A DNA stretch of 60,196 nucleotides from the NCBI GenBank assembly GCA_944391835.1, contig CALXVA010000002.1, forward strand, positions 1-60,196, given 5' to 3'. This DNA is from an uncultured Clostridia bacterium. Its GTDB lineage: Bacteria; Bacillota; Clostridia; TANB77; CAG-508. The notes under the pieces were generated by a model. It did no database searches and was not told where the DNA came from. It was given only the letters and a program-made list of their open reading frames with translations. Below, piece by piece: positions 38,824 to 43,276 of this stretch (positions are counted from its first letter, which is position 1; the number at the start of each line of letters is the position of its first letter). The translations under genes and the position numbers were made by a program.

Positions 38824-39543
38824 TTAACTTAATAAATTTGCTAATTCTCTTTGTTCATTTGTTAAATTAAAATCTTTATTGTTATTTTTAATTAACATAT
38901 GTAAATTTTCTATAATACGCGCCTCTTTTATAGTGCTTTCCAAAGGCATTATTTCTTTTAGAGTTTCTTGTATTTTTTCATACTCTTTTTGCATTCCATC
39001 AAAATCTTGATTATTGAAACTCTCTTTCCAATTGTTTTCATACGCTGATAAATTTTCTACTTCTTCTAATTGATTAGTAAAATTATCTTCTATTTTATTA
39101 CTTACGCTATTTAATATTGCATCCTTTCCACTACTTATTAAATTAGCGACATTACTACTAATTAAACCAGAAGAGCTTGTCTTATCTAATACAGTATCTA
39201 GTACCCCAGAAATCCCATCAATTATTCCTCCATTTTTTACTGCATCTCTTGCCTGTGAAATACTATCAAAATTCCCTGTAAAAATTCCAACAATGCTTTT
39301 ACCTAAATCTATAGCGTTGTTTATTGCCGTATTTACTCCCTCTTTAAATCCTCCTTCAAATAGAGCATCTTTAACTTCAACCACTCCATCTTCTATAAAA
39401 TCTGGTAATACCATTCTTATTCCAACATCTAATGCAGAATTGATGGCTTTTCCTAAACTTGATTCTAAAAAGCTATTTTGCTCTTGTACAAGATTTTCTT
39501 CTGTTAAATTATTTGCTAAAGAAATGTTGTTTTCTATTTCCAT
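38824..39543 (-). CDS. hypothetical Gly/Ser/Asn/Ile-rich protein, last gene of the T4SS-like module
   Basis: Strong RBS AGGAGG. Repetitive ..GIIDGISGVLDTVLDKTSSSGLISS.. segment and a coiled-coil-like C-terminus. No motif recognised. Confidence 0.45.
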   Translation of the reverse strand: MEIENNISLANNLTEENLVQEQNSFLESSLGKAINSALDVGIRMVLPDFIEDGVVEVKDALFEGGFKEGVNTAINNAIDLGKSIVGIFTGNFDSISQARDAVKNGGIIDGISGVLDTVLDKTSSSGLISSNVANLISSGKDAILNSVSNKIEDNFTNQLEEVENLSAYENNWKESFNNQDFDGMQKEYEKIQETLKEIMPLESTIKEARIIENLHMLIKNNNKDFNLTNEQRELANLLS

Positions 39544-40681
39544 AATAATTACCTCCTATTATTTTATAATTTATTTTTAAATATTCTTTTCTTATTTTTT
39601 TATTTATTAAATTATATTTATTATTTTTATTTATCATTTTATTATATATTTCACTATAATTTATTTTTCCAATTATATTAAATTCGCTAAATATAATCTT
39701 TAATAATTTTAAACTAATTGATTCAGAATTATATTTATTAAATATTAAATTAATTTTATTTATTTCTATATTTATATTATTTATAAATTTATCTAATATT
39801 TTTATAGATTTATTTATTTCTAATAAATTAGTATCAGATATAAATAAACATTTATTACTTATTTTTATTATTTCTTTTATATTATTTAAATCGTCATTAC
39901 AATTAGTATCAATAATAATTAAATCATAAATATTTTTTAAATTATTTATATTTTCTAAAAAAATATTTAAAATATAATAATTATTTTTATTAATTTTTTT
40001 ATTGTTTACTAATAAATTTATTTTTTTATTTATTTTAATAAAATTAAAATAATCCAAAAAACTATTATTTAATTTTATAATGTTATTGTCTAATATATTA
40101 TTTGAGGTTGAATTTTTAACACCTAGAATTGTGCTAATAGAATTATTTAAAAAATCTGAATCAATAATTAAAATTTTATTTTTCTGAAAAATATTTATTT
40201 TAGCTAAATTTATAGATATAATTGTTTTTCCCACTCCCGGTGGTCCTGTAATGCAAATTGTTTTATTATTGTAATCTTTGTTAGAATTATTATTAATATA
40301 ATCACTTTTATTTATTTCTTCATTATTATTAATTATTTCAATTAATTTTTTTATATTTATTTTTTCATTTTTTTTATTATATATAATATTGTATATTATT
40401 TTTTCATTTATAAGTTCCTCTAAGTTTTCATTATTTTCTGAAATAATTATTATTTTAATATTTTTATTAATAATATTTATATGTTTAATTAATTCTTTTA
40501 TTTCAATATCTCCTTGTAATAATGTATTTAATATAATAAAATTAATATCTTGAAATTCTTCTAAAACTTCAATAACTCCCTCTCTATATTGAATATCATT
40601 TAAAATTATTTTTAAATTTTCTTCTTTTTTTAATTCTTTATTTATATATTCATCGCCAATAGCGGTTATAATTTTTTTCAT
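39509..40681 (-). CDS. ParA/MinD/CpaE-like P-loop ATPase with an N-terminal receiver-like region, extremely Asn/Ile/Lys-rich
   Basis: ICITGPPGVGKTIISINLA Walker A and ILIIDSDF Walker A'/B-like. The N-terminal roughly 110 aa have alternating beta/alpha hydrophobic periodicity reminiscent of TadZ/CpaE. Confidence 0.5.
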   Translation of the reverse strand: MKKIITAIGDEYINKELKKEENLKIILNDIQYREGVIEVLEEFQDINFIILNTLLQGDIEIKELIKHINIINKNIKIIIISENNENLEELINEKIIYNIIYNKKNEKINIKKLIEIINNNEEINKSDYINNNSNKDYNNKTICITGPPGVGKTIISINLAKINIFQKNKILIIDSDFLNNSISTILGVKNSTSNNILDNNIIKLNNSFLDYFNFIKINKKINLLVNNKKINKNNYYILNIFLENINNLKNIYDLIIIDTNCNDDLNNIKEIIKISNKCLFISDTNLLEINKSIKILDKFINNINIEINKINLIFNKYNSESISLKLLKIIFSEFNIIGKINYSEIYNKMINKNNKYNLINKKIRKEYLKINYKIIGGNYYGNRKQHFFSK

Positions 40682-40757
40682 ATAATTTCCTTTACTTTTA
40701 TTTTTTATTATTAATTAATTTTAAATTAAATTTAATTAAATAAATAATAATTAATTA

Positions 40758-42578
40758 TTATTTATCTATTTTCTTTTCTATAATTTCTTTTTCAAAATCT
40801 GCTGCATATATTTTATTTAATATATGTTCATCTCCTACAAAAGTTAAGCACTCTCCTCTTTTTAAAGATTTTATTTCTATTTTTTCTTTTTCTGATAAAT
40901 TTGTGTATTTTTCTAATATTTTTATATTTTCTTCTTCAAGTGAGAAAAATGTTTTTATACTTGAATTATTTAAAATACTTTTTCCATATATTCCATCTTC
41001 TAAACTAAAAATATCTGAAATATCTTGAGTAACAGCAACTCCACTTCCACCATATTTCCTAATTGTTTTAAATATTTTATATATAAACCCAGCCACATCT
41101 TTATTAGAAGTTACTCCAATTAGTCTCCATATTTCATCTAAATAAATTGCTTTTTTTATTTTTCTATCTTTTTTTATTTTATCCCAAAATAAATCCGTAA
41201 ATAAATACATTCCATATTTTAGATTTTCTTCACCTAATTCATATACATCAGCAACTATCAATTTATTATTTAATTCTACATTTGTATAATTATTAAAAAA
41301 ATTTAATGATCCTTTTATAAATGGAATTAATTTTATTTTAAATATTTTAGTTCTATCGTCTTTATCTAAAATATTATAAAAATCCTGCAAAATTGGCATA
41401 TCAATACTTTCTTTAAAAATTAATTTATTTTCTGATTTTTCTTTATATAAACTTTTGTCATCAAAAGTTATATTTTTAGTATTATATAATTCAATCAATT
41501 TTTCTTCTAAAATAGCTTTTTCTTCTTCATTTATTTTTCCAAAAATAAGATTAAAAAATCCAATCAATTTACTAATTTTATTTGCTAAATATCCTTGTTC
41601 ATCATCTTCTATACTTTCTTTTCTTATATCAAAAACATTTATATATGTGTCTGAACCAGGTCCTATTTTTAAAAGTGTTCCATTTAAATTTTCACATAAA
41701 TGATTATACTCTCTTTCAGGATCTATTATGTATTGCTCTATTCCCAATAATCTATATCTTAAAATTAGTAATTTCGTATAAAATGATTTTCCTGCACCAG
41801 ATGTTCCAAAAATACACATATTTGCATTTTTATATTTTTGTGTATTATATCTGTCAATAAAAATAAGAGAATTATTATATATATTTATTCCAATAAATAT
41901 TCCTGTATCATCAAAAATAGCTGAAGATATAAAAGGATATGTACATACTAATCCACTTGTTAGTACATTTCTTTTTGATACTTCTTTTAATAATTTATTA
42001 TTTTCCATTAATGGCATACATGCTCTATATGCTTGTTCTTGTCTAAAAAAAGCTCTCCTTGTATGTAGTCCCTTACTTTCTAGAATGCCTTCTATTTTAT
42101 TTAATGTATTATCTACCTCTTTTATTTCTTGTGAATAAGTATTTATATAAATATATAAAAAATATAAGTCTTCATTATTTATTTGTAATTCTTTTCTAAT
42201 ATATTTTGCATCATTATATGTAAAAGATGCAATATCAATATCTTGTCTATTTTGATTATTGCCTTTTAAATCGGCTCCGACATTTCCTATATGATATGTA
42301 AGTTCTCTAATAGTTTTATAATTATCTTGTTTTTCATAAAAAATAGAAATATTAACATCAATATTTGTATCAATAAGTGTTTTCAAAAGTAAATCACTTT
42401 GCTCTCTAAAATAATTAATAATTAATATTGATGAAAAATAATTATTATCAATTTCAATGTATTTTGGATTTGTTAAGTTAATATAAGATGGTGCTAAAAA
42501 ATCATTATCAGAAATAGTTCCTTCCATAAAATTTATTTTTTCTTTATTATTTTTTTGTGTTTTTTTATTTATTTTCAT
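40758..42578 (-). CDS. VirB4/PrgJ/TcpF-like T4SS ATPase (C-terminal roughly three quarters)
   Basis: FLAPSYINLTNPKYIEIDNNYFSSILIINY.. entry motif, Walker A IFGTSGAGKSFYTK, IIDPEREY, Walker B AIYLDEIWRL, VTQDISD. Confidence 0.75.
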   Translation of the reverse strand: MKINKKTQKNNKEKINFMEGTISDNDFLAPSYINLTNPKYIEIDNNYFSSILIINYFREQSDLLLKTLIDTNIDVNISIFYEKQDNYKTIRELTYHIGNVGADLKGNNQNRQDIDIASFTYNDAKYIRKELQINNEDLYFLYIYINTYSQEIKEVDNTLNKIEGILESKGLHTRRAFFRQEQAYRACMPLMENNKLLKEVSKRNVLTSGLVCTYPFISSAIFDDTGIFIGINIYNNSLIFIDRYNTQKYKNANMCIFGTSGAGKSFYTKLLILRYRLLGIEQYIIDPEREYNHLCENLNGTLLKIGPGSDTYINVFDIRKESIEDDEQGYLANKISKLIGFFNLIFGKINEEEKAILEEKLIELYNTKNITFDDKSLYKEKSENKLIFKESIDMPILQDFYNILDKDDRTKIFKIKLIPFIKGSLNFFNNYTNVELNNKLIVADVYELGEENLKYGMYLFTDLFWDKIKKDRKIKKAIYLDEIWRLIGVTSNKDVAGFIYKIFKTIRKYGGSGVAVTQDISDIFSLEDGIYGKSILNNSSIKTFFSLEEENIKILEKYTNLSEKEKIEIKSLKRGECLTFVGDEHILNKIYAADFEKEIIEKKIDK

Positions 42579-42691
42579 TATTTTCCTTTCCTAAAATAAA
42601 TAATTAATTCTATATTTTAATTATTTTTTTATTTAATTACTTATTTTCCTCTATTAAATTTAATAATATTTATATAAAAATATTATCGAAT

Positions 42692-43276
42692 TTATTTATT
42701 GTTTGAATAAATTCTTGTATTGAAAAAAGAGAATAAAATATTTTTTATTTGTTCCTTATCATTCATGTCTGTTGCAATGTTACCACATCTTGCTAATCCA
42801 TCTTTTATTTTAAAATATTTATTATTAAGATTTTCTATTGCATGAGTTTGAACATCAATTATTTCATTATTTTTATTTATATAGTCAATAATAATATAAT
42901 AATTTTTTGAAGATGATTTTTTATTATTATTTAATTCTTTAATAAAATTTATATATTTTTTTGATATTTCTTGGATATTTTTTTCTTCTTGAATTAAATT
43001 ATTATTTATTTGAGAAAAATGATTAGATAAATCTTCTTTATTACTTTGAATTAAAATTTGGAAATTAAAATCACAAGTTTTTAGAAATATTTTATATGAA
43101 TTTAAAATAGCTTCTTTTTCTAAATCAGATTTTAAATTAAAATTGATAGGATTTATTTTAATTATTTTTATATATCTATTATCTTTTGTTTTTATAATTC
43201 CGTTTTCCAGTATTTTATCTGTTTTCAGCCAATTTTGTGAAGAATTATTAGTATTATTTTTATTTATTTTAAATAT
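42692..43276 (-). CDS. N-terminal domain of a VirB4-like ATPase encoded as a separate ORF, with no canonical start codon
   Basis: Absent from the ORF track. The frame is open from 43297 to stop 42694..42692. ..KILENGIIKTKDNRYIKIIKINPINFNLKSDLEKEAILNSYKIFLKTCDFNFQILIQSNKEDL.. matches the N-terminus of long Firmicute VirB4 proteins. AAGGAGG is followed 8 nt later by in-frame ATA (43276), and there is no in-frame ATG/GTG/TTG near it. Confidence 0.55.
   Translation of the reverse strand: MFKINKNNTNNSSQNWLKTDKILENGIIKTKDNRYIKIIKINPINFNLKSDLEKEAILNSYKIFLKTCDFNFQILIQSNKEDLSNHFSQINNNLIQEEKNIQEISKKYINFIKELNNNKKSSSKNYYIIIDYINKNNEIIDVQTHAIENLNNKYFKIKDGLARCGNIATDMNDKEQIKNILFSFFNTRIYSNNK

Follow-up and report, generated by a model that had tools for sequence, protein, structure and literature searches.

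A VirB4 gene in pieces between gyrB and gyrA: a probable chromosomally fixed type IV secretion module in uncultured gut Clostridia

Background

In Firmicutes, genes of a type IV secretion system (T4SS) are normally taken as marks of a plasmid or of an integrative and conjugative element (ICE), so what are such genes doing between gyrB and gyrA, in the replication-origin region of a chromosome? We address this question for a stretch of 60,196 nucleotides from an uncultured Clostridia bacterium (NCBI GenBank assembly GCA_944391835.1, contig CALXVA010000002.1), hereafter the window, in which a block of four minus-strand genes (38824-43276) fills the gyrB-gyrA gap. A first-pass annotation, made from the sequence alone, had described the block as an inserted T4SS-like half-locus. 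The analysis reported here makes it likely that these genes provide the soluble part, residing in the cytoplasm, of a domesticated T4SS of the monoderm type MPF_FATA that has become fixed in the chromosome.

Results

The window represents a replication-origin region from a genome of ~26% GC. Its minus strand carries, in order, dnaA (48690-50108), dnaN, recF, a RemA-like gene, gyrB (43647-45560), the four-gene block and gyrA (36249-38687), the sign of the GC skew changes near 50 kb, and the block lies ~6 kb from dnaA. All four open reading frames (ORFs) of the block were found where they had first been placed and are given below in their order of transcription.

42692-43276, minus strand: N-ORF, a TrsD-like VirB4 N-terminal segment of 194 codons with NCBIfam matches and a conserved open frame
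40758-42578, minus strand: VirB4 ATPase, a C-terminal piece of 606 aa (VirB4C) with Walker A GTSGAGKS and Walker B YLDEIW
39509-40681, minus strand: TadZ/CpaE-like protein of 390 aa, with a pseudo-receiver (residues 1-120), a low-complexity N/K linker and a MinD/ParA-fold ATPase
38824-39543, minus strand: p239, a clade-restricted, soluble protein predicted to be helical, whose gene begins 35 nt before the TadZ-like gene ends

VirB4 relatives, searched in one genome per species, were found in at least 359 species. We inspected the loci of the 80 most similar, all from metagenome-assembled genomes (MAGs) of uncultured gut Clostridia (chicken, rabbit, mouse, ruminants and humans, including Hadza samples), and ~70 of these loci were informative. 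The order in every informative locus, each from a species-representative genome, was dnaA-dnaN-recF-gyrB-(N-ORF, VirB4, TadZ-like, p239)-gyrA, apart from the TadZ-like gene in two species described below, and was followed on the opposite strand by dnaI, dnaB/D, p94 and the VirB6-like, pilin and VirD4 genes. Median identity to the window was 75% for VirB4 (72-90), compared with 86% for gyrB and dnaN, 73% for recF and 66% for dnaA, and VirB4 identity tracked that of the housekeeping genes (Spearman 0.76-0.89; 0.87-0.89 for gyrB and dnaN). Ratios of nonsynonymous to synonymous substitution rates (dN/dS) against four related species were 0.07-0.10 for VirB4, 0.09-0.18 for the N-ORF, 0.10-0.19 for p239 and 0.07-0.26 for the membrane components, with housekeeping values of 0.08-0.11 (dnaA) and 0.08-0.13 (recF). 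A VirB4 identical to that of the window occurred on 21 metagenome contigs, and the gene context was the same in all 10 of the places returned. The closest plasmid VirB4 was 34.6% identical, the TadZ-like protein had no match on plasmids, and a viral contig collection held no relatives of VirB4 or p239.

That the block interrupts the gyrB-gyrA junction, as first annotated, stands, but the block is no recent foreign island: the interruption is ancient and fixed in ~70 species. Relatives with the same genes on a plasmid or ICE and an intact gyrBA operon, which had been named as the mark of a decaying insertion, do not come into play here: all ~70 informative loci are interrupted and their genes are under purifying selection. 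The other refuting condition that had been named, an ATPase that groups outside VirB4, does not hold either. The block is indeed visibly AT-rich, with a GC content of 0.16, 0.21 and 0.12 in its first three genes compared with 0.31-0.32 in gyrB and gyrA (p239 has 0.28). Their GC content at third codon positions (0.06-0.08), however, is like that of dnaN (0.09), recF (0.10) and remB (0.05), and N, K, I, Y and F make up 45-64% of the block proteins behind the low GC. The low GC thus stems from amino-acid composition and provides no evidence of foreign origin.

Genes for mobility were sought in three ways. Those ORFs of the window that were scanned with Pfam yielded no relaxase or integrase family, and none was apparent among the glycan-biosynthesis ORFs, which were judged by reading only. 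Likewise, the gene tables and precomputed Pfam lists covering +/-10 kb on 10 contigs of the window's species contained none, and held one insertion sequence (IS) transposase in some strains. Across the scanned ORFs and the ~70 species, we saw none of the features of a self-transmissible element, namely a relaxase by the T4SS, an integrase with attachment sites, a patchy distribution or a phylogeny incongruent with that of the host, the last two judged from the shared insertion site and from identity ranks that follow gyrB and dnaN.

The first-pass annotation had paired the block with a second half-locus on the plus strand (30133-33667), and this pairing is borne out, as the partner genes, at a distance of 5-13 kb, keep their synteny in the relatives. 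They are the following.

30133-31992, plus strand: VirD4-type coupling protein, with matches to TrwB_AAD_bind (3e-8, above cut-off) and SXT_TraD (7e-8) and an N-terminal transmembrane (TM) segment
32065-32427, plus strand: VirB2-like pilin candidate, with a signal-like segment and two hydrophobic helices, and a match to T4SS_pilin PF18895 (E 0.0037) below cut-off
32484-33380, plus strand: VirB6-like polytopic membrane protein with at least four TM-like segments
33383-33667, plus strand: p94, a VirB3/PrgI-like membrane piece matching positions 19-96 of NF045975 (E 0.012)

VirD4 is conserved in the relatives (56-88% identity, dN/dS ~0.1), and the VirB6-like protein matches a 236-aa protein within the T4SS cluster of Vescimonas fastidiosa (E 3.5e-7). 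TM-like segments are present in none of the four block proteins and in all four proteins of the half-locus (VirD4, pilin, VirB6 and VirB3-like), a partition which suggests that energising and scaffolding fall to the block, as the soluble half of the machine, and that 30133-33667 is its membrane half. A hydrophobic ORF of ~50 codons directly upstream of VirD4 (29966-30117, plus strand), with a GTG start past GGAAGGCGG, may be an additional T4SS membrane component. Some strains of the window's species, the window not among them, carry an IS with an rve-family transposase between the dnaB/D-like gene and p94 (L001 and L003, 18821-19804), so the T4SS region is polymorphic between strains.

The ATPase motifs reported for the VirB4 ORF (GTSGAGKS and YLDEIW) are present, and its assignment is supported by matches to Pfam P-loop_TraG (7e-22) and AAA_10 (1e-13) and to the VirB4 structure 4ag5 in the PDB (3e-41). 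Its top NCBIfam family is conju_CD1110 (282 bits, positions 178-730 of 752), and only one cluster member bears a name in its source, "conjugal transfer ATP-binding protein TraC". The N-ORF in turn matches positions 94-260 of NF045975 and 2-161 of NF045971, and TrsD NF041427 weakly (E 0.0017). On the 894-position Mycoplasma-ICE VirB4 model NF045975, p94 (19-96), the N-ORF (94-260) and the 606-aa ORF (273-893) are contiguous, and the same collinearity is seen on a 942-aa PrgI-VirB4 fusion protein of Vescimonas fastidiosa, where p94 aligns weakly with residues 54-97 (E 3e-4), the N-ORF with residues 127-302 (E 1e-20, 28% identity) and VirB4C with residues 332-923 (3e-113, 35% identity). This collinearity points to a three-way fission of a PrgI-VirB4 fusion. 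VirB4 had been described as split, which is correct, but the split is not two-way: there are three cistrons, and the third piece, p94, lies in the other half-locus. To judge by these alignments, the protein is a VirB4 homologue in pieces, below equivalog-level membership, whose missing N-terminus is the separate N-ORF. The split is present in all species examined; an apparent in-frame fusion of N-ORF and VirB4 in one locus (L004) was artefactual, created by Ns that fill a gap in the scaffold.

Plasmids pGO1, pSK41 and pIP501 likewise encode a small homologue of the VirB4 N-terminus (TrsD/TraD) directly upstream of VirB4 (TrsE/TraE). The match of the N-ORF to TrsD is, however, weaker than its matches to the N-termini of full-length VirB4 models (7e-9 and 2e-8), and it covers the exact segment that VirB4C lacks. 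Because it corresponds to the absent segment and matches the VirB4 models more strongly, the N-ORF looks like a fission product rather than a TrsD orthologue.

The N-ORF has no ATG, GTG or TTG start; as first placed, it probably begins with ATA at 43276, 8 nt past AGGAGG (43290-43285). It is nevertheless a real gene rather than a chance open frame, because it is open and conserved in ~70 species in stop-rich DNA of 16% GC. Among 71 genomes (70 species loci and the window), the apparent start codon was ATG in 33, ATA in 29 (including the window) and ATT in 8, located 4-10 nt past a GGAGG-type Shine-Dalgarno sequence (4-8 nt for the ATG starts). At least 18 species have no canonical start within the first 70-200 codons of the conserved frame, and in some the ATA or ATT is the first codon past an in-frame stop. 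Owing to the ATA start, gene callers missed this TrsD-like gene in all 10 contigs of the window's species with gene tables. Non-canonical starts such as ATA and ATT are discriminated against by initiation factor IF3, which suggests that translation of the N-ORF is deliberately low or regulated.

We then considered how the block is transcribed. A scan for consensus promoters and terminators gave 67 sites where 74 were expected by chance and missed the terminator past p239; it was uninformative in such AT-rich DNA and could not by itself tell the block promoter from a chance site, and folding and cross-species alignment were used instead. The elements are the following.

43473-43550, minus strand: hairpin and U-run, likely the gyrB terminator (-30.3 kcal/mol, z = -8.0; 0 of 200 shuffles as stable)
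43354-43370, minus strand: operator-like element TGTCGAA-N3-TGGCATA, directly upstream of the -35 hexamer
43316-43344, minus strand: sigma-70-type block promoter, with -35 TTGAAA (43344-43339), a 17-nt spacer and extended -10 TGaTATATA (-10 at 43321-43316)
38765-38804, minus strand: block intrinsic terminator, a U-run preceded by a stem of 17 bp (-20.6 kcal/mol, z = -4.96)
38735-38764, minus strand: separate gyrA promoter candidate TTGCAA-18-TATAAT (10 of 12 consensus positions)

The promoter and terminator of the block had both been proposed before; the terminator is supported by folding and the promoter by conservation across species, the relatives having TTGACA-N17-TAnAAT in the same register. 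The stable hairpin between gyrB and the block promoter likely insulates the block from gyrB transcription, so that gyrB, the block and gyrA would form three transcription units. Upstream of the promoter, the clade shares TTTGTCGAA-N3-TGTCATA-CGATTTTTC, and in the window the first repeat of the operator-like element (43370-43364) is TGTCGAA, a perfect core of the Spo0A (0A) box (PMC3485338). Of 67 species, 57 carry TGTCG[AT]A in the DNA that precedes the N-ORF (background 0.03 per 450 nt), and 70 of the 94 exact TGTCGAA sites in 79 loci were at the block-promoter position and on the same strand, while no 0A-box motif was found upstream of the VirD4 half-locus in the window. From these signals, the block is an insulated transcription unit with a conserved promoter and a perfect Spo0A-box core as a putative site. 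The gaps on either side of the block (gyrB/N-ORF and p239/gyrA) are hot spots of variable accessory genes in other species, with the T4SS genes staying put; judged by eye from their translations, these genes encode helix-turn-helix-type regulators, a P-loop ATPase and small ORFs (L016, L033, L036, L044, L072, L077 and L080).

The third gene of the block had been called ParA/CpaE-like, with VirC1 as a possible model. The CpaE-like part of this claim holds, but the VirC1-type part does not: the protein has the two-domain build of TadZ, and no VirC1 Pfam match was obtained. Pfam matches were to CbiA and AAA_31, and PDB profile matches to MinD, Soj and bacterial tyrosine kinases (BY-kinases). An AlphaFold 2 (AF2) model built with 25 homologues (mean predicted local distance difference test score, pLDDT, of 76) shows an alpha/beta domain resembling a receiver (1-120), joined to an ATPase of the MinD/ParA fold. 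Foldseek ranked 3fkq first (7e-12), aligned over 416 columns across both domains with a TM-score of ~0.4 and a root-mean-square deviation of 17, which implies that the domains are placed differently relative to each other, and the next were MinD, ParA and FleN. 3FKQ is the TadZ of E. rectale (PMC10499894). The phospho-acceptor position of the receiver (end of beta-3, "IILN") is unconserved, being N, D, K or S among homologues, and Walker A reads (T/N)GPPGVGK(T/S), with Pro in place of the signature Lys of the deviant Walker A KGGxGK[ST]. Lengths within the species are 390, 449 and 518 aa through expansion of the N/K-rich linker (L006, 11898-13247; P0241 and P0254), and in another locus (L086) the protein is shortened to 311 aa.

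Compared with TadZ/CpaE of the Tad (type IVc) system, which share the two-domain arrangement of an atypical receiver and a MinD/ParA-fold ATPase, the Clostridia protein has no CpaF/TadA, TadB/C or Flp neighbours, lacks the KGG lysine and has a long, variable N/K-rich linker. No CpaF-like gene was found in the window, where its neighbours are VirB4 and p239. VirC1, which in Agrobacterium brings substrate to the VirB/D4 T4SS at the cell pole, offers a functional analogy as a ParA/MinD-fold ATPase likewise encoded with a T4SS, but it has a single ParA domain, works with VirC2 and involves overdrive binding, unlike the two-domain Clostridia protein. A canonical Soj/ParA and Spo0J/ParB pair, together with DUF4446, is encoded on the other side of the origin (57520-59188, plus strand), and the TadZ-like ATPase is hence not the chromosomal ParA. 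On its predicted structure, it may work like a TadZ-type scaffold, in a setting without a Tad locus and without the KGG motif.

The last gene, p239, had been reported as a protein of unknown type, in agreement with our searches: there was no significant match in Pfam, NCBIfam or the PDB, the one Pfam match being far below cut-off (E 0.036), and a PDB profile search gave nothing below E 0.2. Its AF2 model is an all-helical prediction of low confidence (pLDDT 50). The description as Gly/Ser-rich fits residues 61-150 (23-37% G+S) but not the whole protein (16% G+S). Matches to PHROG tape-measure proteins (1e-4 and 1e-3) were rejected as probably compositional, caused by helical, Gly-containing repeats. 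The p239 family comprises 463 representative clusters among 1.84 billion, nearly all of ~240 aa and all unnamed. Two loci, L065 and L090, are without the TadZ-like gene and have p239 directly past VirB4, and in L078 (13043-13769) it is broken into ORFs of 77 and 142 aa, by pseudogenisation or assembly error.

Two further genes of the window appear interrupted. A UDP-glucose/GDP-mannose-dehydrogenase-like gene (9354-10638, minus strand), within a large glycan-biosynthesis operon (1765-12748), consists of overlapping ORFs of 123 aa (10267-10638) and 311 aa (9354-10289) in different frames, a frameshift that reflects either a pseudogene or a sequencing error. A matrixin-type metalloprotease (17966-18569, plus strand; HEMGHVFGLNH, Peptidase_M10 8e-10) is represented by two overlapping ORFs of 117 and 100 aa.

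Discussion

The best sequence relatives of the locus are T4SSs of the CTn2/CD1110 type, found on ICEs and megaplasmids of Clostridia, as on Vescimonas fastidiosa pMM35_02, where all matches fall in one contiguous cluster. There VirB3, N-domain and ATPase form the single 942-aa protein, whereas in the Clostridia locus they are split three ways and fixed in the chromosome. The Vescimonas cluster also encodes a C39 peptidase, DUF5697, DUF6100 and a CD1115-type VirD4, and is without a TadZ-like or p239 gene.

A closer parallel in genomic behaviour comes from the Patescibacteria, or candidate phyla radiation (CPR). Their T4SS is derived from MPF_FATA and encodes TrsD beside VirB4, PrgI, VirB6, PF18895 pilins and a type IV coupling protein (T4CP); it rarely includes a relaxase, often lies by dnaA/dnaN and is vertically inherited (PMC12102498; Quinonero-Coronel et al. 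2025, Microb Genom). It is reported as essential for epibiotic growth of Ca. Southlakia epibionticum (PMC12102498). The Clostridia locus has in common with it the MPF_FATA relationship, a separate TrsD-like gene, VirB4, PrgI/VirB3, VirB6, a candidate pilin of the PF18895 type and VirD4, as well as being chromosomal, near dnaA/dnaN, without a nearby relaxase, vertical, and widespread in a reduced-genome lineage. It differs in being found in a Firmicute, exactly between gyrB and gyrA, with soluble and membrane halves around gyrA-dnaI-dnaB, and in adding the TadZ-like ATPase, the orphan p239 and the Spo0A-box promoter; the passages searched in the CPR paper make no mention of a ParA-like component or a gyrase context (PMC12102498). 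We do not file the locus as a CPR-type member because the host genes (DnaB/D-DnaI helicase loaders of the DnaB_2/DnaI type and the RemA-like gene) and the NCBI labels point to Clostridia. We found no description of this system in gut Clostridia in the literature, and nothing relevant on T4SS in TANB77, the GTDB order to which the clade may belong. A "conserved pilin" cluster reported from TANB77 is a Tad/CpaF cluster with its own TadZ and CpaE (PMC11680825); considered as the same system, it proved to be a different cluster.

By homology, a mechanism can be proposed for the machine. The VirB4 pieces would assemble on a VirB3/VirB6 membrane platform and power assembly of a VirB2-like pilus or conduit and, together with VirD4, export of substrate. 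The TadZ-like protein would be a scaffold, dependent on nucleotide, by which the machine is brought to a defined site in the cell, a role that would be dispensable given its loss in two species and fast evolution, and p239 may be a lineage-specific partner or substrate tied to VirB4. The whole could then serve as a regulated apparatus for cell-to-cell translocation or contact, as has been proposed for the T4SS of Patescibacteria.

Several observations weigh against a complete, domesticated T4SS of which the block is the soluble part. The 282 bits of VirB4C fall below the 325-bit equivalog cut-off of NF045971, and the pilin and VirB3 assignments come from sub-threshold matches. The TadZ-like gene is under relaxed selection (dN/dS ~0.47), is absent in L065 and L090, and is tied to the T4SS by synteny only. 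Other parts of the genome could encode a relaxase, a VirB1-like hydrolase or a VirB8-like protein, and the loci inspected are the 80 closest to the window among the at least 359 species with VirB4 relatives.

Among other explanations, the machine might still conjugate, mobilising chromosomal or other DNA in an Hfr-like (high frequency of recombination) or distributive manner with a relaxase and an origin of transfer (oriT) located elsewhere. This would agree with the conserved VirD4-type coupling protein, with best VirB4 family matches that are conjugative, and with an origin-proximal site beside DNA-handling genes. However, neither the ORFs of the window that were scanned or read nor the +/-10 kb stretches of the 10 contigs showed a relaxase, strict vertical inheritance and fixation are unlike self-transmissible elements, and the Patescibacteria counterpart is likewise largely relaxase-less (PMC12102498). 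Continued conjugation is thus an unlikely explanation. Given the fixed locus and the lack of any relaxase or integrase in the neighbourhood searched, the machine has probably ceased to serve self-transfer, and a regulated apparatus for translocation between cells or for contact is likelier. A DNA-uptake (competence) machine comparable to the ComB T4SS of Helicobacter or the archaeal Ced system could benefit reduced genomes by importing DNA or nucleotides, but ComB-type importers are not known to have a VirD4 coupling protein, which is conserved in the Clostridia locus, and no com genes were seen in the window. Although the Spo0A-box-like promoter would fit stationary-phase control, and Spo0A regulates competence in Bacillus (PMC3485338), we judge uptake to be improbable.

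It is scarcely credible that an ICE or plasmid once inserted between gyrB and gyrA and that the block is what its decay has left. The split VirB4, an N-ORF without a canonical start that gene finders leave uncalled, the low GC, and a TadZ-like gene that evolves fast and was lost twice could each be read as decay, but all pieces are open and conserved in ~70 species, their dN/dS is 0.07-0.19, the whole clade shares the split, which is ancestral, and the non-ATG start alternates with ATG past a conserved Shine-Dalgarno sequence, behind a conserved promoter. The gene next downstream of a ParA/MinD-fold ATPase usually encodes its partner, and the TadZ-like and p239 genes, overlapping by 35 nt and origin-proximal, could accordingly constitute an independent module that positions the origin, the division site or a Tad pilus and merely shares the VirB4 operon; a Tad pilus cluster would be available in the clade if it is TANB77 (PMC11680825). 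Yet p239 stays right past VirB4 where the TadZ-like gene was lost (L065 and L090), the TANB77 Tad cluster has its own TadZ and CpaE (PMC11680825), the canonical Soj/Spo0J pair is present, and all four genes share one promoter-terminator unit, which together render an independent module very improbable. The soluble module of a fixed, domesticated MPF_FATA-type T4SS therefore remains the reading that we consider likely.

Conclusions

The T4SS genes described here behave as core genes: they occupy the most conserved chromosome neighbourhood, under a constraint similar to that of dnaA and recF, in at least 70 species of a prevalent uncultured gut lineage. On GC content, the locus would be mis-scored in annotation as a mobile element or "genomic island". 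The parallel with the T4SS of Patescibacteria epibiosis provides a testable handle on the substrate, the partner cell and regulation through the Spo0A-type box. More speculatively, an order-level clade of uncultured gut Clostridia with reduced genomes, possibly GTDB TANB77, might have undergone an independent, Patescibacteria-like conversion of a T4SS into a core, origin-proximal cell-to-cell apparatus, apparently under stationary-phase control of the Spo0A type; we regard this as a tentative possibility. If true, p239 and the TadZ-like protein would add to the known components of T4SSs, and these bacteria would have an obligate lifestyle of contact with other bacteria or with the host, which could explain their resistance to cultivation.

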